From Escherichia phage A221: 64,000 nt of DNA. The notes under the pieces are model-generated. The model had not been told where the DNA came from, ran no database searches, and saw nothing but the letters and a program-made list of their open reading frames with translations. The stretch lies in sequence record ON862890.1, one strand, 5' to 3'. Numbering within the stretch: position 1 is the stretch's first letter; each line of letters starts with the position of its first letter. A program made the position numbers and the translations under genes. Shown one piece after another: positions 6,410 through 56,976 of the stretch.

Positions 6410-7834
6410 ATGTTACTCGAATCTGTCGTGCTTTCACAGTTGATTTACAATGAAGATTACCAAAGAAAGATCCTGCCGTACCTGAAAGCCGATTATTTTG
6501 ACAACGAAGGCGAAAAGGTCATCTTTGGTCTGATTGACAGTTATACCTCAGAGTACAATGCCCGCCCGTCTGTCGAAGCACTATCTATAATTCTTGAACG
6601 GACAAAGCTGAACGAATATGTGTTTGACCAGGCGGTATCTGCCCTGGAGAACATCAACGACAACACCTTCAATGAAGAGTGGCTGGCGAAGGAAACCGAG
6701 GCTTGGGCGCGACAAAAGGCCGTACACAACGCAATCAAGACCGCCGTTAACATCTACGGTGACGAGAAGCGCAAGGACGAGATGAACAACATCCCGACCA
6801 TGTTGCAGGAAGCCCTGGCTATCCGGTTTGATTCATATCTCGGTCACATCTATTGGGAGATGGCGGCAGAGCAGTATGACCACATGAACTCCAACGAGGC
6901 CAAGATCCCGTTCGCAGTTGAGATATTCAATAAGGCGACACGTGGTGGCGTTGGTAAGAAGACACTGAACATCGTAACAGGTGCGATCAACGCAGGTAAG
7001 ACCACAACGCTGATTGACCTGACCGCAGGGTACTCGGAGCAGGGGCTGAACGTCTTTGTCTTCACCCTTGAAGTGGCCGAGAACGTCTGGCGACACCGTC
7101 TTGATGCCCGTATCATGCGACGCGACTTTGAGTCTTTAGAGAAACTCACAAGGCACGAGTATATTGCAACGATAGAGAAGCTCCGCAGTCGCCAAGATGG
7201 TGCGCCCAAGGGTGATATCGTCATCAAGGAATATCCTTCCGGTACTGGACACACAGGTTTATTCCGCCGCGATATCCTTGAGTACATCCAGGCAACAGGT
7301 CGTGCTCCTGATGTTATCGTTATTGACTATCTTGGCGAAGCTGCTTCCTCGCGCCTGCCTGCCCACCTGATGCAGAACACGAACGTCTATTACACGTCTG
7401 TGGCTCGTGAGTTTCGTGCGCTGGGATTTGAGTTTGATGTCCCTGTATGGACTGGTATGCAGTTCAATCGTGAGAATCAGAATAGCACTGATGGCGGAAT
7501 CAGCGATTTGGCAGATGCTATCGGTATTCCGAAGGTGGCCGACTTCATCATGGCATTCTATGCTCCTGACGAACTGGCGGCGGTCAAGAAAGCCCGAGCC
7601 TCAATACTCAAGAACCGTTATGCCAACAAGCAGAAGCTGAAATCATTCCTGTTTGGTATGGACCAAGACAAACAGATCCTGTTTGACCTGGACTGGAATG
7701 AAGTTAAGAAGGACCTGACTGAGGCTGAGGCCAAATATGTCGAAAACGTACACATCAAACATGACCTCAACAAGTCCGGGGCTGCTGCCAGCGATGAGCA
7801 GAAAGCCCAAACGGTCAATAATTGGAAATTCTAG
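6410..7834 (+). CDS. 41: replicative DNA helicase (T4 gp41, DnaB-like)
   Basis: Start trimmed to MLLESVVLSQLIYNEDY matching T4 gp41 N-terminus; Walker A GAINAGKT; C-terminal KNRYANKQK..NNWKF like gp41. Confidence 0.9.
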   Translation: MLLESVVLSQLIYNEDYQRKILPYLKADYFDNEGEKVIFGLIDSYTSEYNARPSVEALSIILERTKLNEYVFDQAVSALENINDNTFNEEWLAKETEAWARQKAVHNAIKTAVNIYGDEKRKDEMNNIPTMLQEALAIRFDSYLGHIYWEMAAEQYDHMNSNEAKIPFAVEIFNKATRGGVGKKTLNIVTGAINAGKTTTLIDLTAGYSEQGLNVFVFTLEVAENVWRHRLDARIMRRDFESLEKLTRHEYIATIEKLRSRQDGAPKGDIVIKEYPSGTGHTGLFRRDILEYIQATGRAPDVIVIDYLGEAASSRLPAHLMQNTNVYYTSVAREFRALGFEFDVPVWTGMQFNRENQNSTDGGISDLADAIGIPKVADFIMAFYAPDELAAVKKARASILKNRYANKQKLKSFLFGMDQDKQILFDLDWNEVKKDLTEAEAKYVENVHIKHDLNKSGAAASDEQKAQTVNNWKF

Positions 7835-11070: not shown

Positions 11071-12501
11071 ATGATCCCTATCCTTGAAACAGTCCACCGA
11101 CTTCGCGAAACCAAAGGCAGCAATGCGAAGAAAGCCGTGCTGACCGAAGCATTCAAGAACAACCCAGACTTGGCAGACTTCCTGCAGTATGTCTATGACC
11201 CAATGACGTCGTTCTATCGGACTGAGTTGAAGCTCAGCGCGTATCCTCGCATGCTCGTCCGTGAGAAGACTGATGACATTAGCGAAGTCTATGAAGTCCT
11301 CGACCAGATGGCACAGCGCCTTGTCGGTGGCCAAAAGGCTGATGCCCTGTTGGCCTCTGTCGCCCTGAAGATGGATCCCCAATACCACGAACTCATTCAG
11401 ATGATCCTAGACCGTGATATCAAGGCGGGTATCGCTGAGAAGGGCATCAACGCTGCATTCAACGCCGCCGGAGGCACTGGACGCCTGATCAACATCCTTC
11501 CATATCATCGTTATGACAACATGACGATTGACCTGCTGAAGAAGATGGACTTCAAGCGCGGCGTCTACAGCCAGCTGAAGTCAGACGGTATGTTCGCCAA
11601 CATCATATGTCGGTACAATAAAGAGCCTGAGATTCGCTCTCGCTCCGGTTCCCTTATCGCAGGTGGTTCGGTTGATAACCTTTCACTGGTGTTCAAAGAC
11701 CTGATCTACGATGCGGGGATTGGTGAGAGTGTGTTCCATGGTGAACTTCTCGTTGTTGACCTCAAGTCGAATACCATCCTGCCTCGTGCTGTCGGTAACG
11801 GTAAACTCAACAGCGTGATTCAGACAGGAGAACCCCTGGAAGATCGTTATCGGGTGATCTACCGGGTGTGGGATGTTGTGCCGTATGAACAATGGTTCAA
11901 CGCCCAGCGCGTGGACACCCCGTATGAGCGCCGCTTCGATATTATCCAGCAACTGTTTGATGAAGACGACGGTCTGGTTCAGGTTCAAGAAACCCGCGTT
12001 GTTCACTCATTTGCCGAAGCCGTCGACCACTTCAAAGACGCGCTGGCTCGCAAAGAAGAAGGCACGATATGTAAGGCCGCAGACATGCCGTGGGAAGATG
12101 GTACTTCTTCTGAAGGTCTGAAGCTGAAGATGGAGGTTGAGTGTGACCTTGAAATCGTGGGCTTCAACGAGGCTGACAAGAAGGGTAAACACGCCAAGAC
12201 TTTTGGCTCACTGATTTGTAAAACTTCCGACAGCCTGCTTGTCGTTGGCGTATCAGGGATCTCAGATGAGCTGAGACGCCATATGTGGGAGAACCAGGGC
12301 GACTACATTGGCAAGATCGCCGCAGTGCTCTCCAATGGCGTACAGGATAAGACCGATGATGCGATGAAGTCTTTGTTCCTACCTCGCCTTGTAGAAGTCC
12401 GCATTGACAAGAAAGTGGCCAACACACTGGATGAAGTCTATGCGATACAGAAAGCGTACATTGAAAACATCGCATTCCTGTTGGAGAAGAGTAATGGGTG
12501 A
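11071..12501 (+). CDS. 30: ATP-dependent DNA ligase (T4 gp30-like)
   Basis: N-terminus, KSDGMF (motif I KxDG), FHGELLV, RVWDVVPY, EGTICK, DLEIVGF and C-terminal LFLPRLVEVRIDKKVANTLDEV all align to T4 ligase. Confidence 0.85.
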   Translation: MIPILETVHRLRETKGSNAKKAVLTEAFKNNPDLADFLQYVYDPMTSFYRTELKLSAYPRMLVREKTDDISEVYEVLDQMAQRLVGGQKADALLASVALKMDPQYHELIQMILDRDIKAGIAEKGINAAFNAAGGTGRLINILPYHRYDNMTIDLLKKMDFKRGVYSQLKSDGMFANIICRYNKEPEIRSRSGSLIAGGSVDNLSLVFKDLIYDAGIGESVFHGELLVVDLKSNTILPRAVGNGKLNSVIQTGEPLEDRYRVIYRVWDVVPYEQWFNAQRVDTPYERRFDIIQQLFDEDDGLVQVQETRVVHSFAEAVDHFKDALARKEEGTICKAADMPWEDGTSSEGLKLKMEVECDLEIVGFNEADKKGKHAKTFGSLICKTSDSLLVVGVSGISDELRRHMWENQGDYIGKIAAVLSNGVQDKTDDAMKSLFLPRLVEVRIDKKVANTLDEVYAIQKAYIENIAFLLEKSNG

Positions 12502-12727
12502 GTATATGAGTTTCTGGTGGGCGAAGTTCTTGGTTGAACTTCAGATATCCGGCATCGTCTTCTTGATCGCCGTGATCCTAGTTGCCCGTTCGGCGTTCAA
12601 GCAATGGCGCTGCAAACACAGCACCTATCGTGAGAACCATGCTTGCCATGCTATCTGCACCCATTGCGGGAAGGATCTTGGGTTTGTAGGCACTGTTCGC
12701 GAGATGAAGAAACACAAAGAGGTGTGA
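12494..12727 (+). CDS. small membrane protein with CxxC pair
   Basis: ATG 12494 overlapping ligase stop; TM ISGIVFLIAVILVA; CHAICTHC. Confidence 0.35.
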   Translation: MGEYMSFWWAKFLVELQISGIVFLIAVILVARSAFKQWRCKHSTYRENHACHAICTHCGKDLGFVGTVREMKKHKEV

Positions 12728-12731
12728 TCTG

Positions 12732-20727: not shown

Positions 20728-21237
20728 TTATTTGTCAGGGTTCACTAAAACAGGGGTGGATACCAGTTCGCCGCTCTTCACAGAATGCTGGACTACAACA
20801 ATCTGATCGACCATGCGATATACTTCAATCCCAGCAGCCAGCATTTCAATAATGCCGTCTATGATACGATATGGTCGGTCATAGAACACTTTAGCGATCT
20901 TGCCACTGTCGATAATACGACGGGTGCACTCTGGGCATGGACTATGAGTGACAAACATCACCAGGCCACAACAGTCTTCAGTGTGCTGGGGGAGTTTGCT
21001 CAGAGCATTCTCCTCGGCGTGGATAACACCCACCGATACCAGTTGACCGTCTACTTCCTTCTCACAGACATTAGGAGCGCCAGGAGCAGTCCCGTTCCAA
21101 CCGATAGACAGGGGCTGGTCAACACGCGGGTCAACGATAACACAGCCGACCTTCAGGCGCTGGGCATAGCTGGACAGAGCGTATGCATGAGCCGAGCGCA
21201 TATGCGCAAATAACATACGGGGTTTGATAGCCATCAC
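20728..21237 (-). CDS. cd: dCMP deaminase
   Basis: Zinc deaminase motifs HAEENAL and SPCPEC with preceding CVIVD...GWNGTAPG. Confidence 0.75.
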   Translation of the reverse strand: MMAIKPRMLFAHMRSAHAYALSSYAQRLKVGCVIVDPRVDQPLSIGWNGTAPGAPNVCEKEVDGQLVSVGVIHAEENALSKLPQHTEDCCGLVMFVTHSPCPECTRRIIDSGKIAKVFYDRPYRIIDGIIEMLAAGIEVYRMVDQIVVVQHSVKSGELVSTPVLVNPDK

Positions 21238-21617: not shown

Positions 21618-21956
21618 TCAGAGATAAGATTTACCGAGTTCGGTCAGGCGATAGAACGTCACCTCAGTGTTCGGCCAGTTCACGTAAGAACCGTCATGAA
21701 CCATTGAGCCAGCTGGTTCGATCAACCCCTTGGCGAGCAGGGAAGCCCCTGTGCGGGTGTCCCATGGGTCGCCTTTGACGGAGGTGAAACCACCAGCGTT
21801 CGGGCATACCTGGAACGTCCAGACGGTGTTGCCCTTGTCATTGGTCCAGGATTTGGGATGCAAGTACCATTGACCATAACGGTAATGACCTTTCTCAAAG
21901 TTCTCTATCCCGTAGAGAACCGAGAGTTGGTGTCCTGTGATGCGCGGCTTTTTCAT
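21618..21956 (-). CDS. hypothetical protein
   Basis: Start trimmed to MKKPRITGHQ to abut upstream gene. Confidence 0.4.
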   Translation of the reverse strand: MKKPRITGHQLSVLYGIENFEKGHYRYGQWYLHPKSWTNDKGNTVWTFQVCPNAGGFTSVKGDPWDTRTGASLLAKGLIEPAGSMVHDGSYVNWPNTEVTFYRLTELGKSYL

Positions 21957-22270
21957 GACAATACTCCTTTCAGAGCCAAAACGGAAAGCACACCAATAAT
22001 CAACCATGTCGGGATAATCGGCTTGCAGTTCATGTGGGTTTCTCCACCTTCGATGTTCGGACTTCCTTGTATAAGAACGTGTTTACAGGAAGCTCTGAAC
22101 GTCATTACACAGCCCATCAACACAATCGGCCTGATATAATAACCCGTTTTAGTTTGCTTCACGATACATGGAGAGGAGAAGCGCAGATATGGATCCCCTT
22201 TCCGGTAGCCTGTGATTGTGACCTTCTGCACTTCAGAAGGCACTTTTTGGCCAGGAAAATAAATTTTCAT
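21953..22270 (-). CDS. membrane-anchored hypothetical protein
   Basis: C-terminal TM IIPTWLIIGVLSVLAL. Confidence 0.4.
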   Translation of the reverse strand: MKIYFPGQKVPSEVQKVTITGYRKGDPYLRFSSPCIVKQTKTGYYIRPIVLMGCVMTFRASCKHVLIQGSPNIEGGETHMNCKPIIPTWLIIGVLSVLALKGVLS

Positions 22271-22845
22271 ATTTCAATCCCCAGATTGGTGTATAACAAC
22301 TCAGACAGGGTTACAGGGCGCTTGAATTGTTCCCAACTACAGTTCAGGTATTCACGTTCTTCACGCATTTCACTGTGAAGATGACCATGGATATTATACG
22401 CCCAGCGGTCTAATTGATAAGGAACGTGAGTGGTCAGCACACGACCAACCGGAGTATCACGCTCATACATCGCACCAAAGGAGCTAATCTATCCCTCTTG
22501 ATATAGCTTCATCAACATCTTGAAGCTGTCATGGTTGCCTTGCGCCACCCTGATGATAAAGTTCGGTCGCCAGTCATCGGGAACCGGGCGGCGCTTGAAC
22601 TCATCAATATTCCGCTTGGCACCCTCGCGCATCAGGCGAATGAACCCCTCAGCCCCGATGAAGCAGATGTCGCCTGCAAGTTCAAGGACGTCTCGTGACT
22701 TCAGCCCCTGAAAGATACTGTCGATAACTGCAGCATCATGCGCCTCTTGGGTATCGAACCCACGGGGCTTGAAGATCTTCTTGTGCCCAAGGTGGGTGTC
22801 TCCCAGATACTTCACAATTCCTGCCATTATGGTCTCCTCAACCAT
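22267..22845 (-). pseudogene. calcineurin-like metallophosphoesterase interrupted by in-frame TAG
   Basis: N-part has GDTHLGH, LAGDI, GNHD; C-part has IHGHLH; joined in same frame through amber at 22489-22491 (...KLYQEG*ISSFGAMYERD...). Confidence 0.6.
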
Positions 22846-23168
22846 TCTAAAATCGGTACGTTCACAAACCCTTTATGCCAGCGATGTGGTTTATGGCCTC
22901 TGTTGTGTTCGAGCAAACACGTATCCGGTGGGACACTGAAGTGGATGCCTTCGATGTCGTAGTAATGCCCATCAATCAGAGTATACACATGACCTTCGGT
23001 CTGACTGTAATGGATCTCTGCTTGAGGGTACACGTGCTTCAACAACAGAGCGACCTGGTAACACTTCCCGTTCTTCCCCACGTACTCGACATCCACCTGT
23101 TGTGGAAACACATCTTTGACAAAGTTTATCAATCTCGTGATGTCATTTACAACAACCGAACGTTTCAT
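22827..23168 (-). CDS. hypothetical protein
   Basis: Start set at internal ATG 23168 with GGGAGAGG RBS. Confidence 0.4.
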
Positions 23169-23221
23169 ATCGCCTCTCCCGAGGATTCGTTGGTGAACCA
23201 ATGATACTCTATACCGGATAT

Positions 23222-23242
23222 AGAAAAGCCCCTCACGGGGCT
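23222..23242 (-). terminator. rho-independent terminator
   Basis: AGCCCC-tcac-GGGGCT with U-run on minus strand; stop codon of upstream gene sits in loop. Confidence 0.45.
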
Positions 23243-23535
23243 TGATCGTCTTCATCAGGGAATATACGCCATCGACCTATTCCATACCACTCACCGATAG
23301 AGTTCCATGTCCTTTCCCCAGGCCAGCCGCCGACCGTGTAGTAATGCGCTACCAGCCGCCAGTAAGGAAGAGAGGCCATGTTCACGCCGCCGTCGGCCTT
23401 TAGGCAGGCCAAGTACCAATTCGTGAGACTGAACGCCTGAAATAACGGATGAAGGAACATGAAGTATAGGTAGCCCAATATGGCTGCGAACACCCCAGCT
23501 GTTACGATCACACCGATGACAGTGAATACAATCAT
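23233..23535 (-). CDS. small membrane protein
   Basis: Two hydrophobic helices in N-terminal half. Confidence 0.4.
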   Translation of the reverse strand: MIVFTVIGVIVTAGVFAAILGYLYFMFLHPLFQAFSLTNWYLACLKADGGVNMASLPYWRLVAHYYTVGGWPGERTWNSIGEWYGIGRWRIFPDEDDQAP

Positions 23536-27443: not shown

Positions 27444-29342
27444 TTATTCATCCTCAGTTTCAAATAGGCAAACATCGCTAAACCAGGTTTTGCGGTAATC
27501 GGCGGCCTCATCACCGAAGCCATTCTTCAGTGACTGTTGATAGCCATCGTCCAGCGTGACCGTCGTAGTATACGCATCCAGGTTGTTTAGAATACGTTTG
27601 AAGTCTTCAGTGCTGTTACCGCCAAGACCTTTCAGATATTTCTTCTTCGTGATCTTCTTGGCATCAGGTGTCTTCAGGAACTCCTCATACTCTGCGTTGT
27701 TCATGAACTCATACATCACCTTACCACACCACACACGCATGTAAGGGGTGCGCAGGAGCTTCAGTCTGCCCTGACGGACGTACTCCGGCCAGTAGGTGCA
27801 ATACAGGGTGATCAACAACCCACGGATGTGGATGCCGTCATCGTCCGCATCGGTAGCCACAACAGTCTGTGGGTAACGGGTGATATCAAGGGGCTGGCCT
27901 GGCACTGCGCCGCCATGGATCGTACACAGGTTCTTGAACTCTTCATTGTTCATCACCTTTGAGCGCGGGGCGTTCAGGCAGTTGATGAACTTACCACGAA
28001 GCGGGAACAACCCGATCTTCTTGGTGTCGCGGGCGTTCAGGATAGGATTGGAGGCACTATCACCCTCTGTCAGCAACAGGGAGCATCCGCTGCGGTCACC
28101 ACGGGCGGTCGCCGGGTAATACTTCTCAATCTCACGATAATCCCGCTTGCTGATGTCCTTCTTGGCCTTTTCAAACTCAGCATCGTCCTGCTCATTGCGC
28201 AGGGAAGCCAGTTCTTTGCTCAGACCAGCCGTAACGAACTCAAGCGCCTTGCGGATCAGTTTATCACTGGGCTTGTACGACGTACCGAACTGGCTGACAG
28301 GAGTGGTCATGCGCTCCTTGGTCTGGCTGTCAAAGCGCGGGTTGTTGATGTCGGCGGCGATGAACAAGGACATGTGGTTCTTGATCATTGCTGGCTTCAG
28401 TTCGGTCTTGAACTTCTTCACCAGCTGGGGACGAATCGCTGCCACGATCTGGTCAGCAACATAATCAACGTGAGGACCACCGATGTGGGTGGCAATAGAG
28501 TTCACGTATGATGCGTGCATGAACGTACCGGATGAAGGGGCTACAGCAACAGACCAATCCCCGGTTTCGTCAACAGCCGAACCAGCATGGAAGTAATCAA
28601 CGAAGTGGCCAAAGCGGTCAATCCGGATTTGCTTCCCATTGAGAACAATCTTCAGGCGCGGGTTACACGCAGCCACTTCAAACGCGCGGCGATAGATCAT
28701 CAGCAGGTTGTTCTGGTCAAGTCCTTTGACGCCCAGACGAGCATAGTCAGGGATCCAGGCGATGGATGTGCCGGGACTGTTCACGTTGCTGATGACTGGG
28801 TTAGATTTCTTGCTCATGTTGTCTTCAAACGTCTGAGTATAAGACTTCTTGCCGTCATTAGTCGTGACGCGGAACCATTTGGAGAACACGTTGACGAGGG
28901 ACGCCCCTTCGCCATTCTGACCACCGGACTTCTGGTTGTTGTACTCTTCGTCTTCGTCGTTGAAGTTCGATCCCGCAAACAATTCTGAAAATAACATTTC
29001 TGGCAACCACATACCAGATTCATGCTTGACCACAGGGATACCCCCGTTGTCAGCAACGATGATTTGACCGTTCATCGGGGAAACTGTGACGGTGATTTCC
29101 GTCAGGGATTTACCCTCAGGGGTCTTGCTGTGGTCAACACAGTTGGTGATGATTTCATCAAACTGTTTGATAAGAGCGGGGTTATATTCAAAATTGTCTT
29201 TAAACACAACTTTGTCTTTGCTGAGATCATATACCCAAGCCATCCCGACAGAAGAACGGATACTCCCTAGATGGCGCTCTGGGCGAAGGAGTATATGCTC
29301 GATGTGTGAGAGCTTTTTGTATTTTCTGTTTACATCAACCAT
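27444..29342 (-). CDS. 39: DNA topoisomerase II large subunit (T4 gp39 with gp60-equivalent region fused)
   Basis: GHKL ATPase N-terminus, Toprim-like LLLTEGDSA, KGLGGNSTEDF; 632 aa single ORF. Confidence 0.85.
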   Translation of the reverse strand: MVDVNRKYKKLSHIEHILLRPERHLGSIRSSVGMAWVYDLSKDKVVFKDNFEYNPALIKQFDEIITNCVDHSKTPEGKSLTEITVTVSPMNGQIIVADNGGIPVVKHESGMWLPEMLFSELFAGSNFNDEDEEYNNQKSGGQNGEGASLVNVFSKWFRVTTNDGKKSYTQTFEDNMSKKSNPVISNVNSPGTSIAWIPDYARLGVKGLDQNNLLMIYRRAFEVAACNPRLKIVLNGKQIRIDRFGHFVDYFHAGSAVDETGDWSVAVAPSSGTFMHASYVNSIATHIGGPHVDYVADQIVAAIRPQLVKKFKTELKPAMIKNHMSLFIAADINNPRFDSQTKERMTTPVSQFGTSYKPSDKLIRKALEFVTAGLSKELASLRNEQDDAEFEKAKKDISKRDYREIEKYYPATARGDRSGCSLLLTEGDSASNPILNARDTKKIGLFPLRGKFINCLNAPRSKVMNNEEFKNLCTIHGGAVPGQPLDITRYPQTVVATDADDDGIHIRGLLITLYCTYWPEYVRQGRLKLLRTPYMRVWCGKVMYEFMNNAEYEEFLKTPDAKKITKKKYLKGLGGNSTEDFKRILNNLDAYTTTVTLDDGYQQSLKNGFGDEAADYRKTWFSDVCLFETEDE

Positions 29343-30166
29343 TATTATCTCCGTAAAATTTCAACCAGGCGGGATCTTCTTTTGGTATCCAACCTTTCTG
29401 AAATTTAGATATACAAGTTTGAGCTGTGGCCTTAGAACAAACAGAGCTTAACCCGGTTTCTTTCAACATTAAACAATAACGGTTCTTCACTTTGTCTTCA
29501 CCGTTACTATACCACCATTCAAAGAATTCACCAGCCAAGAGCCATTGTCGGGATTTACCCGTCTTTACGACAGTCGGGTGTTCCCCAAGGTTGTATGTTA
29601 TTCATGGGATTGTTCTGGCGCCACATAGCAGAATACCTCTCCCTTTCTTCTGGTCGCCTCATCCGTTCGGTGACTGATTTGGTAAGATTGGCTTTGTGTG
29701 CTTCGGAGTGTGGTATCCCTTTCCTGGATTTTGACAACCTGCGCCTTGATTCGTCATTCCAAGTGTAACCTCTCAAGCTATCCGCACGTTTCTTCTGTAC
29801 TTCTGGGTTCAATGAGTTTTTCTTGGATTGCTTACGACAACGTTCCTTTTGTTCATCAGATGACATCACTTCTTTCATTCTGGTGGAATTATTTCTCCTC
29901 AATTCCCCAAACTCTTTGTTGTTCCTAGACATGTTGTTCATCCCAGTCCATGCCTTCCTGATACCGGGGTTGAGTGGTTTTGTTCTCCAAAGTAGGTGAT
30001 GTACGACATAATGTTCTTCTGGTGTCAACCATACAAGATTAGAGAAGTGGTTAGTGCCACCCAAGCACACAGGGATTATATGGTGGCGTTCTTGATAAAC
30101 GCCATCCATTTTACCTCTCTGTATTGCTCTCTGTATGAGAGCGTCTAAGATGATTTCGTATTTCAT
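29335..30166 (-). pseudogene. HNH homing endonuclease, frameshifted
   Basis: ERHHIIPVCLGGTNHFSNLVWLTPEEHYVVH plus NUMOD-like repeats; paralog's C-terminal region continues in another frame (track ORF 29335-29538 from TTG); shift near 29555-29580. Confidence 0.7.
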
Positions 30167-42965: not shown

Positions 42966-44201
42966 TCAGCGTTTCAAGAGTGCCATGAGGTTGACGCTGC
43001 TGGACTTCGACTTGTCCTCAACCTTACGCACAGGCATCTTCAGGTTCGTATATACTTCGGACGGTTCCCAGCGCGTACCCTTTTGCAGGTGCCAGATATG
43101 CAGAGGAACACCAGTCTCAAAGAACACAGGCATCTTCCACTTCTGGACGCCTGGAACGTGCCCTGCAGGAGCCTTTTCGCACAACAGGGTATCTGGCAGC
43201 CAGAGCGAACGGGCTTCCCAGAGCGCTGCGCAGGAGTATTCAGGCCAGACGCGTTCCATGTAGTCTATCTCATCCCAGGTACGCTCTGCGTCCCACCCGA
43301 TGTAACGAGTATTCTTCAGTCGGAAGAATTTCTTCAGCCAACAAGCACCGGAGGTTTCAAAGTTCAGGCGGTTGATGAACGTCAGGTGCCCGAACTCAGC
43401 CACACAATCCTGGAACGCCTGCTCAAGGTCGGCCTCAAGGATGTCACACTCTTCATCCGTGATAGGGCAACTGTTGATCTTTTTCTTCCCGTGTTTAGTC
43501 ACCCAATCGTCACGGTTGGACAAGAACGCCGCGCCATTACGGTTGGACTCGCTTCCATCACGATCACGCAACATGAAGCCAGGGACGTCAATGGTGTATT
43601 CGTTCCCGAAGACCATGTTCAGGGCTTCCAGGAAGTTCCAGGCGCTCAGGCGACCGAAGTATTTCCAGGACATCGCCGTGTCCCACAGCTGGGTGAATTG
43701 TTCTGTCTTATCGATGCACACCAACATCCCACGGAAAGCGTCATATTGAGTACGGCCAGCCAGCCAGTCAATATAGGACTGAACACACGGAATCATCTTG
43801 GACTTGCGGTAGCGACAGTCGGTATCGAATCGCATGCGATCAAAGTTCAGATTATACCAATCAGAGAAGCGCTGCATCTCTTCCTTAGACTGAGGCGGCA
43901 CAGGGAACTCACTGTAGATCGTCCACGGCCCGACGGCGTTATAGCAACAACCCCACAGGAATGCCATCCAGATCTTGCGCTCGACTTTCTGTTCGAGGCT
44001 GATGCCTTCAGTGACTTCGATCGCATAGTCCATCAGACGCATCTGCTGGTTGTGCTCTTCTGTGTAGGACAGCGCCTCCACCCAAGCCTTGAGCAAGTAC
44101 ATGCGATTCTCAGGCTTGCGATAATCAACAGCCAGGTCAATCGGGTACTTCCATTCAGCCGGAGGCGTATAGCCCGTCGGCATTTTAGATAAATGATGCA
44201 T
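42966..44201 (-). CDS. hypothetical 411-aa protein; candidate DNA base-modification enzyme by context
   Basis: Large soluble protein, Trp/Cys-rich, no motif recognised; same transcription unit as P-loop kinase 44759-45664. Confidence 0.5.
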   Translation of the reverse strand: MHHLSKMPTGYTPPAEWKYPIDLAVDYRKPENRMYLLKAWVEALSYTEEHNQQMRLMDYAIEVTEGISLEQKVERKIWMAFLWGCCYNAVGPWTIYSEFPVPPQSKEEMQRFSDWYNLNFDRMRFDTDCRYRKSKMIPCVQSYIDWLAGRTQYDAFRGMLVCIDKTEQFTQLWDTAMSWKYFGRLSAWNFLEALNMVFGNEYTIDVPGFMLRDRDGSESNRNGAAFLSNRDDWVTKHGKKKINSCPITDEECDILEADLEQAFQDCVAEFGHLTFINRLNFETSGACWLKKFFRLKNTRYIGWDAERTWDEIDYMERVWPEYSCAALWEARSLWLPDTLLCEKAPAGHVPGVQKWKMPVFFETGVPLHIWHLQKGTRWEPSEVYTNLKMPVRKVEDKSKSSSVNLMALLKR

Positions 44202-44564: not shown

Positions 44565-44762
44565 TGGTTCCTTGAATATTTTGTAACCAGCAGCGCCGAT
44601 AGACATCACCGCGCCAATACAGTACATCACAGTCACGTTCAACTTCTCTGAGGTTGTTAAGTCCAGAGGGGTGAAATGATAGGCTAGGGCAGTACACATT
44701 GAAACGGCTGCCATAACCAGACCAATGAACAACAGATAATTAGACAACCGTTTCATGATCAT
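44559..44762 (-). CDS. small membrane protein
   Basis: Two TM helices in 67 codons. Confidence 0.4.
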   Translation of the reverse strand: MIMKRLSNYLLFIGLVMAAVSMCTALAYHFTPLDLTTSEKLNVTVMYCIGAVMSIGAAGYKIFKEPK

Positions 44763-45664
44763 CCCTTCTTCATCAGGTCAAGGAGAGAGCGCGACGCTGC
44801 CTTCGTTGCTTCTGGCTGGGCGCTCGCCTTGGTTTTAGTTTTGGATGCCTTCTGCGGCTTCTCAGGCACTCTGTGCGCCAAAGGATCATCACCGCCGACC
44901 TCACGGGTCATTGGATTGGTTTCACAGTAGGCATAAAAATCTTTGATGTCAAGGTTAACCGCGCCGATATCCATCTGATAAGCGATAGCATCCCCGACAA
45001 CCCAAAGAGGGGCATCAAACGGCATGACTGCCAGTTCGCTACGTGGATCCATTTCCCACTCATTCTGAGAAGGTTTTGTATACTCAACATCCTGCCCACT
45101 GTACACGTCTGCCAAAACGTTCCACCCCAGTGCCAACATTTCGGCCTTCGACTTCTCAAACTCCTTGTAGTAAGATTCGTTGCGCGACCAGCCGGAGTTC
45201 CCTGCTTCTTTACCAGAGCGACCACGGATACGAGCATCGTACTGATAGCGGTCGGGGTACGCAAAGTACAGCAGCGCCAATGATTCAATCGGATAGTTCT
45301 TGAACATCCATTCAGGACGCCATTTGTCCGATAGCATGAGAGGTTCTCCCTCGCACACCAGAGTGTATCCCTGAACCAACCAGCACTTGATTAGATCACG
45401 AGCAATATCGCCTGAGCCTGTAGCAGCATGGATTGCATCCATTGAAGTCCAGGAAGCCAGGCCGGATTTGTTAGACACGGTGTACTGTCCAACGAAGATT
45501 AACTTCAGCTCTCCGAACTTCAAGCCAAACGGGCGAGTCTTGTCACCAACGGTGTAGGTCAGTTCGGTAGGCTCCAGCTTAGTGCGCAGCCATTCGATGA
45601 ACTGGACCACTCTCGTACCCTTACCCACGCCACTTGTTCCCTTCACTACAATTATTTTAGCCAT
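44759..45664 (-). CDS. P-loop kinase (candidate DNA-level 5-hydroxymethyl-pyrimidine kinase)
   Basis: Walker A KGTSGVGKGT; 301 aa with Lys/Ala-rich tail; function inferred from context only. Confidence 0.5.
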   Translation of the reverse strand: MAKIIVVKGTSGVGKGTRVVQFIEWLRTKLEPTELTYTVGDKTRPFGLKFGELKLIFVGQYTVSNKSGLASWTSMDAIHAATGSGDIARDLIKCWLVQGYTLVCEGEPLMLSDKWRPEWMFKNYPIESLALLYFAYPDRYQYDARIRGRSGKEAGNSGWSRNESYYKEFEKSKAEMLALGWNVLADVYSGQDVEYTKPSQNEWEMDPRSELAVMPFDAPLWVVGDAIAYQMDIGAVNLDIKDFYAYCETNPMTREVGGDDPLAHRVPEKPQKASKTKTKASAQPEATKAASRSLLDLMKKG

Positions 45665-46343
45665 TCATTATTCTCCAACCGAGACATGTTTTAGCCCTAC
45701 CTTTCAAGAGATTCGTTATATTACCAGAAGGGAGGCCATATTGAAGTTCCATATCGCATCTTCTTAACTCAACAATGCGATCATCTTTGTGCTGCCATTT
45801 GTAAATCGTTTCATCGCGGCCAGGACCAATGTCTATCAGGCCAAGAGCATGCAACTGTTTCCTTGTCTCACCTGCTCGCCTCTGGGCTTCTGAAGGTGGA
45901 GGTAATGGCTTCTTTATCACTCCCTCGGAAATCAGTTTCCTTCTGGTTTCACCACCCTTTCTTTGTGACTCAGCCGATATGCGGGGAGGTGGCTTGATCT
46001 TACCCTCAGCGATCAAACGTTTGCGGGTTGCAGCACTCTTTGCGGATGAATTAGGCGTGGCCAATGGAGGCTTCCCACCCCCGACGACCATGTTGTAGCA
46101 CCACCCAGAGTCAAGGATCTCCTGGCAGACCAGTTCAGACTCTATCTGAAGGATAACCGAATCTTTCCCTCGGAACAGAACTTCAAACTTGAACTGGTCT
46201 TCACCGTATTTCTTGAACGCTCGTTGTAATGCAATGCTCCCCTGACCACACTTATGCTCAGCCAACCGCCTATCCGGTTCTGAGGTGACACCGATATAGA
46301 ATTTATGATTGACGAGATTCGTGATCAGGTAAAGCGACAGCAT
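45657..46343 (-). CDS. GIY-YIG homing endonuclease (free-standing)
   Basis: LYLITNLVNHKFYIGVTSEPDRRLAEHK GIY-YIG motif; repeated Gly/Lys-rich NUMOD-like linkers. Confidence 0.8.
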   Translation of the reverse strand: MLSLYLITNLVNHKFYIGVTSEPDRRLAEHKCGQGSIALQRAFKKYGEDQFKFEVLFRGKDSVILQIESELVCQEILDSGWCYNMVVGGGKPPLATPNSSAKSAATRKRLIAEGKIKPPPRISAESQRKGGETRRKLISEGVIKKPLPPPSEAQRRAGETRKQLHALGLIDIGPGRDETIYKWQHKDDRIVELRRCDMELQYGLPSGNITNLLKGRAKTCLGWRIMNG

Positions 46344-56557: not shown

Positions 56558-56646
56558 TGGCGGAAGGTGAAGGATTCGAACCTTCGGGGGCTAAAAGCCC
56601 CACTCGATTAGCAGTCGAGTCCCTTAAACCTCTCGGGCAACCTTCC
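56558..56646 (-). tRNA. tRNA-Ser (anticodon GCU)
   Basis: Cloverleaf folded by hand: acceptor GGAAGGT/ACCTTCC, anticodon loop CTGCTAA, long variable arm, T-arm GAAGG-TTCGAAT-CCTTC, CCA encoded. Confidence 0.85.
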
Positions 56647-56899
56647 AATTTGGACGGGCTTCACACCCGATTGAGCATTTGATCTGCCGTAGCCCAACTC
56701 CCCGCGCTTCTCAGCGCCGATTGGTTAACTGGCGACCAGTGCCTTCTGGTTCGATCTCCTGGAACTTTACAGGCTTTGCGCCCGACCATTTCTGGAAGTT
56801 GGGGCATCGTTTCCGATGCGGAGTCATCCCCATTTTATACACAGCTGGCTGCAACGCTTACTGTGTTTGTCGGAGTGTTATGTTTCACACCCCTTAACA

Positions 56900-56976
56900 T
56901 GGTGATCCTGATTGGGTTTGAACCAATGACCAATGAATTATGAGTTCACTGCTCTAACCAACTGAGCTACAGGACC
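56900..56976 (-). tRNA. tRNA with CAU anticodon (Met, or Ile if lysidine-modified)
   Basis: Acceptor GGTCCTG/CAGGATC, D-arm GCTC-AGTTGGTTA-GAGC, anticodon loop CTCATAA, T-arm ATTGG-TTCAAAC-CCAAT, CCA encoded. Confidence 0.85.

Follow-up and report, generated by a model that had tools for sequence, protein, structure and literature searches.

Results

A probable nonsense mutation in an accessory phosphoesterase gene

Our results suggest that an accessory metallophosphoesterase gene of phage A221 was inactivated by a real, recent and lineage-private single-base nonsense mutation, a reading to which we assign a probability of about 70%. Comparison with intact orthologs places the change at position 22490 of the window (the whole stretch of 64,000 nt of ON862890.1 that was analysed), where a G to A substitution on the coding strand (C to T on the + strand) turns TGG into TAG and Trp113 into an amber codon. 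We are dealing here with an ordinary recent loss-of-function mutation or with a consensus error, and not with a special decoding mechanism.

The minus strand between 22267 and 22845 reads as one frame whose sole internal stop is this TAG (...KLYQEG-stop-ISSFGAMYERD...GHLH...GIEI-stop). The sequence-only reading had described a single in-frame TAG between two ORFs that together carry GDTHLGH, GD, GNHD and then GHLH; the translation contains all of these, the first three before the stop and GHLH after it, and THVP as well, after the stop. It had also taken the two ORFs for the halves of one gene, and this was borne out by the alignment to intact orthologs of ~97% nucleotide identity, which is gap-free over the whole 561 nt and has TGG at the position of the stop. 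Note that same-frame adjacency is common in the window, where pairs of such ORFs (each of at least 60 codons) are separated 13 times by TAG, 18 times by TAA and 26 times by TGA, so it is the homology and not the adjacency that shows the two ORFs to be one gene.

The ORF limits first proposed (22489-22845, 118 aa, and 22267-22470, 67 aa) were right in the position of the stop and in the shared frame, but most likely not in the start at 22845. The true start of the phosphoesterase is most likely the ATG at 22827 (MAGIV...), which shares a base with the TAA that ends the upstream ORF (22827-23255; TAATG) and is the start annotated in most of the relatives and in the A221 GenBank proteins. With this start the N-terminal product has 112 aa, not 118. 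The 67-aa ORF begins at what was an internal methionine of the ancestral protein, Met120, whose ATG lies 21 nt (7 codons) past the TAG and has only a weak Shine-Dalgarno-like GGTG, 2 nt upstream. At the other end of the gene, the ATGA overlap looks like a translational-coupling junction. Since the phosphoesterase ends in a TGA that shares bases with the start codon of the downstream 105-aa ORF, the premature amber, 220 nt upstream, may abolish this coupling and lower the expression of that ORF. The coordinates are collected in Table 1.

Table 1. Features of the phosphoesterase locus and of other loci discussed in the text (window positions)
Feature	Position	Strand	Basis or remark
Ancestral metallophosphoesterase gene, 186 codons + TGA, broken at codon 113	22267..22827	-	Gap-free alignment to orthologs; PHROG 547
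Amber TAG in place of the invariant Trp113 codon TGG	22489..22491	-	Sequence; ortholog alignment
N-terminal fragment CDS, 112 aa, = UTQ72683.1 (phage A221)	22492..22827	-	Exact protein match
C-terminal remnant ORF, 67 aa, = UTQ72682.1 (phage A221)	22267..22470	-	Exact protein match
Motif I, GDTHLGH	22783-22803	-	N-terminal fragment
Motif II, GD	22669-22674	-	N-terminal fragment
Motif III, GNHD	22528-22539	-	N-terminal fragment
Motif IV, THVP	22420-22431	-	C-terminal remnant
Motif V, GHLH	22375-22386	-	C-terminal remnant
Shine-Dalgarno GAGGAG, spacing 6 nt to the ATG at 22827-22825	22834..22839	-	Read from sequence
ATGA overlap: phosphoesterase TGA (22267-22269) / start of the 105-aa downstream ORF (21953-22270)	22267..22270	-	Read from sequence
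HNH homing-endonuclease gene with extra G, ortholog of PC3_000150 (276 aa)	29335-30166; G-run ~29576-29600	-	Comparison with PC3 and CECAV_050
tRNA-Ser(GCU) and tRNA-Met(CAU)	56558-56976	-	Sole tRNAs found in the window

The TAG allele is private to one record

The region matches phages of the Ackermannviridae (genus Agtrevirus and its near relatives), with nucleotide identities that reach 97-98.6%; among the close matches are Salmonella phage vB_CECAV_050 and Escherichia phages PC3, PH4, RPN242, LHE287 and YX22. There are 580 phage records with the phosphoesterase gene, and in 571 of them at least 80% of its length is covered. The gene occurs throughout the Ackermannviridae, and homologs with 26-36% identity are present in T5-like phages, in Vibrio phage Va2 and in jumbo phages of Pseudomonas, Caulobacter and Brevundimonas. 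At the locus, all four relatives examined have one unbroken CDS of 555-579 nt in their annotation. The Ackermannviridae orthologs (among them Shigella phage Ag3 orf00029, PC3_000140, vB_CECAV_050 gene 021 [cecavS50_021], CBA120 orf033 and that of ViI), named either 'phosphoesterase' or 'putative serine/threonine protein phosphatase', share with the A221 gene synteny, 92-98% amino acid identity and the overlapping start/stop junctions; they differ from it in being one unbroken protein of 184-192 aa with Trp113, where A221 has TAG. Within this group, the LHE287 ortholog (L003, about 869-1429) differs by 1 nt close to the 3' end (GGGGATTTGAAATATG vs GGGGATTGAAATATGA), which shortens its protein by the last two residues (184 aa) and also changes the ATGA junction with the gene downstream.

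The sequence-only reading had suggested comparison with orthologs as a check, and in every relative the codon proved to be TGG. This holds for the four GenBank relatives aligned, for 16 of 16 orthologs of equal length and for the full set of 20 orthologs taken from GenBank and IMG/VR, whose ORFs (555-573 nt) are all intact. When we searched with a pattern permitting either TAG or TGG, TGG alone was recovered from IMG/VR (3 contigs) and from metagenomes (1 contig), and the prokaryotic genomes gave no match. Likewise, the 71-nt context of the TAG had no 100% match among the 165 matching phage records, the best reaching 97.2%. Thus, sought in IMG/VR, GenBank phages, metagenomes and prokaryotic genomes, the TAG allele was found nowhere else. 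At the protein level, every full-length homolog with an identity of 50% or more has Trp at position 113.

The gene is under strong purifying selection in the relatives, with a median pairwise dN/dS of 0.036 (114 pairs with dS >0.05). The private differences of the A221 gene are three synonymous changes and the nonsense change. Since nothing but synonymous changes accompanies the nonsense change, there has been no time for decay, and the gene was functional until very recently. From this comparison the TAG is either a fresh mutation or an artefact, in a gene that is under selection in nature and yet seems to have been lost very recently.

The split is already present, uncommented, in the public annotation of A221. 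Proteins identical to the 112-aa (MAGIV...QEG) and 67-aa (MYERD...) products are known from a single record each, UTQ72683.1 and UTQ72682.1. Both come from the 153,297-bp genome of this phage and carry the name 'putative serine/threonine protein phosphatase'. A221 (ON862890.1), a viable lytic Agtrevirus, was obtained with the pig E. coli strain GXXW-1103 as host and tested in piglet therapy trials (PMC10510151). In the part of that article's text that was searched, the sequencing platform is not given and the phosphoesterase gene goes unmentioned.

A predicted small metallophosphoesterase

To describe the ancestral protein we used the read-through translation with TAG restored to TGG (186 aa, hereafter the repaired protein). 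It matches PHROG 547, 'phosphoesterase', with E=1.2e-43, and it carries in order the five motifs of the metallophosphoesterase (MPP) superfamily: GDTHLGH (residues 9-15), GD (52-53), GNHD (97-100), THVP (H134) and GHLH (148-151). Residues D10, H12, D53, N98, H99, H134, H149 and H151 are invariant in 15 homologs, and H15, D100 and H147 are likewise invariant in the homolog alignment. Neither the repaired protein nor the fragments gave a Metallophos match in Pfam (PF00149, Metallophos, or PF12850), even at E<=10. NCBIfam gave sub-threshold matches only, to PdeM and SbcD-related models, and the only match of a sequence profile search of the PDB was a marginal one, to 1xm7 (E=0.044). Since there is no direct Pfam match, membership in the superfamily is set by the motifs, a profile search, the Pfam matches of distant relatives and the structure. 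The family profile search collected 2155 representatives at E<=1e-3. Ten distant ones were scanned against PF00149 (gathering score 21.5 bits); nine of them passed, and the tenth, at 20.6 bits, fell just short.

The AlphaFold2 model of an intact ortholog (P0001, 96% identical) has a pLDDT of 90.4 and shows the alpha/beta sandwich of the MPP superfamily. Here the structure-based searches were decisive where the PDB sequence profile search had been marginal: the closest solved structure is that of Aquifex aeolicus aq_1665 (1xm7), and phosphodiesterases and nucleases rank above the PPP phosphatases. The protein is thus best described, from its motifs and modelled fold, as a predicted aq_1665-like small metallophosphoesterase of the calcineurin-like MPP superfamily, in agreement with the metallophosphoesterase identity first proposed from the motifs. 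The aq_1665 protein itself is a small stand-alone cellular metallophosphoesterase of unknown function with ~20% identity to the phage protein, and, having no known substrate, it offers no clue to the function of the phage enzyme. The lambda Ser/Thr protein phosphatase (1g5b), a phage-encoded MPP, and the PPP family have the same superfamily fold and the same logic of di-metal motifs, and the GenBank product name originates from the lambda enzyme. We considered a PPP-type Ser/Thr protein phosphatase and rejected it: the protein does not combine the PPP signatures GDxHG, GDxVDRG and GNHE with a closest structural similarity to PPP enzymes. The product name 'putative serine/threonine protein phosphatase' appears not to be supported by the model. 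Note that the allele in the window does not encode a complete polypeptide with all the metal ligands, because translation stops at codon 113 and motifs IV and V lie beyond the TAG.

Other differences between the window and its relatives

We mapped 70 annotated genes of PC3 onto the window, and 67 of them have an intact counterpart. An in-frame stop was seen in the phosphoesterase gene alone; among the other PC3 genes mapped, one has suffered a frameshift, another lacks a counterpart and a third, which encodes a homing endonuclease, is largely absent. The frameshifted gene is the HNH endonuclease gene of Table 1, where the window has CCTTGGGGAACACC and both PC3 and CECAV_050 have CCTTGGGAACACC, so that the frame shifts after about codon 193. 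This additional G is the only other inactivating lesion among the 70 reference genes.

The largely absent gene encodes the PC3 homing endonuclease 'F-LimXI' (1497 nt, L024 44638-46134), of which only the last 126 nt match the window, around ~44760-46340. A small ORF of PC3 (L024 12404-12619) is without a counterpart, the window being different at ~12487-12731. Both differences are typical presence/absence variation of mobile elements. The 405-aa ORF at 42966-44183 (minus strand) has indels of 1, 4, 1 and 3 nt near its 3' end relative to the PC3 ortholog. A frameshift was considered for this gene and rejected, since the indels compensate, about 15 C-terminal residues are recoded and the frame is kept; the ORF is intact. 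Finally, the translation of the 169-aa ORF at 20728-21237 (minus strand) contains HAEENAL...PCPEC, which resembles the zinc-binding signature of cytidine/deoxycytidylate deaminases and makes this product a putative deaminase.

Alternative explanations for the amber codon

It is unlikely, but a possibility to be taken seriously, that the phage truly carries TGG and an intact gene, the A at 22490 being a base-calling, polishing or minority-variant artefact of the assembly. An error of this kind would suit a TAG allele that occurs in one record only, at an invariant codon of a strongly constrained gene whose other private changes are all synonymous, and no independent A221 assembly is on record (contig index, searched with the 112-aa product). 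Moreover, the second private lesion, a homopolymer +1 (GGGG vs GGG), is of a type typical of errors on certain platforms and makes the assembly a little less trustworthy. However, substitution errors are rare in high-coverage consensus assemblies, and since 67 of the 70 PC3 reference CDSs, with every large essential gene of the set, are intact in the window, errors are not frequent in the assembly as a whole. The two affected genes are both expected to be dispensable, and the essential genes of the 70 are unharmed; this fits real mutations filtered by selection, whereas random errors would not favour such genes. The disrupted ortholog of Escherichia phage FEC14 (see Discussion) also shows that a real lesion in this gene is tolerated.

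The remaining explanations accept the amber and propose that the gene is nonetheless expressed to some purpose; even taken together, they are improbable. The full-length enzyme might still be made in useful amounts through a host amber suppressor or a leaky TAG-A context. In E. coli an A after UAG favours amber suppression, and the base that follows this stop is indeed A; furthermore, the host GXXW-1103 is an uncharacterised field isolate. We give this only a slim chance, since the stop is conserved in no relative and neither the window nor the complete genome of PC3 (98.6% identical) contains a tRNA with a CUA anticodon. With any of the common suppressors, Gln, Tyr or Ser would take the place of the invariant Trp, and an in-frame stop was seen in none of the other mapped genes. 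In addition, TAG ends at least seven other long ORFs of the window, four of these with A as the next base, and basal readthrough in sup0 E. coli is far below 1%. Programmed stop-codon readthrough was rejected: with TGG in all orthologs examined and the TAG context absent from the 165 phage records, the stop is not conserved in any relative, and this excludes it as an evolved feature. The wider idea that a real amber leaves the locus useful, either because re-initiated fragments reassemble as a split enzyme or because expression is conditional on a suppressor host and acts as a host-dependent switch, is just as improbable as simple suppression. For the split enzyme taken separately, re-initiation at Met120 would yield 112-aa and 67-aa fragments that reassemble actively and would restore the coupling to the downstream gene. 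The ATG seven codons past the stop, the annotation of both pieces as CDSs in GenBank and the position of the break in the model, between a helix (residues 102-110) and a strand (116-118), are compatible with it. But the arrangement occurs in one record only and without compensating changes, the Shine-Dalgarno-like element is weak and badly spaced, and neither fragment would contain residues 113-119, a stretch with the invariant W113 and with I114 and F117, which are nearly invariant; the fold is not known to tolerate fragmentation at this site, and the chance of a split enzyme is slimmer still. A phage-wide reassignment of TAG to an amino acid, as in some gut phages, is suggested by the single in-frame TAG and by nothing else, and we regard it as extremely improbable. 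Frames split by TAG are not enriched relative to those split by TAA or TGA, only 1 of the 70 reference genes has an in-frame stop, and TAG closes conserved genes at the same place as in the relatives. TAG ends 8 of the 71 long ORFs in the window; the sequence-only reading had cited gp41 as an example of its use as a normal stop, and both the gp41-like helicase ORF ending at 7834 and at least six other long ORFs agree with this. The two tRNAs of the window are also the whole tRNA complement of the complete PC3 genome, and neither is a suppressor. A TAG-recoded phage, which should have many in-frame TAGs, no TAG terminators and a tRNA(CUA), was rejected on these grounds. Thus, of the three explanations originally offered for the amber codon, recent mutation of a dispensable gene and sequencing error remain, while readthrough or suppression is disfavoured.

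Discussion

We favour a real nonsense mutation that was acquired very recently by the A221 lineage. In this scenario, the TGG to TAG change would have hit an accessory gene of the early region of an Agtrevirus phage, and ribosomes would stop at the amber and release the 112-aa fragment. Motifs I-III are retained in such a fragment, but its beta-sandwich is incomplete at the C-terminal end and the three metal-binding histidines of motifs IV and V are missing. Given how enzymes of the superfamily are known to be built, a protein without these strands and motifs could form no active di-metal site, and the fragment is probably inactive. The gene would be dispensable on the laboratory host, and the mutant would have been carried along or fixed during isolation and propagation of the phage. 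If the base is real in the phage stock, as we infer, this origin is also the more expected one: the strong purifying selection seen in the relatives indicates that loss of the gene is probably costly in nature, so that a fixed natural loss is less expected than a mutation of the laboratory stock.

The change resembles the classical amber mutants of phages T4 and lambda (am alleles), in which one base is changed to give UAG and the protein is truncated unless the host provides a suppressor tRNA. It differs from them in that it would be spontaneous, in an environmental isolate and in a non-essential accessory gene, and because the gene is non-essential no conditional-lethal phenotype would be anticipated.

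A closer parallel is found in Escherichia phage FEC14, a Kuttervirus, whose ortholog is also split into two CDSs (ATW66909.1 and ATW66908.1), both called 'putative serine/threonine protein phosphatase'. In this phage the gene is disrupted not by a nonsense substitution but by a 23-bp tandem duplication (TGACACGCCTGTTGGCCGTGTGT twice; L030, MG383452.2, 401-984), which causes a frameshift near codon 132, and this is an independent event in another genus. Since FEC14 is viable despite the disruption, it argues that the phosphoesterase is dispensable in culture.

For the annotation of A221, the two 'phosphatase' CDSs are the halves of one gene disrupted by a nonsense codon, which should be annotated as a pseudogene or have this base re-checked. 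Beyond annotation quality the significance of the finding is small. Taken together, however, A221 and FEC14 indicate that a strongly conserved gene of the Ackermannviridae is dispensable for growth in culture, and this dispensability may be useful for finding its natural function or for engineering therapeutic phages.
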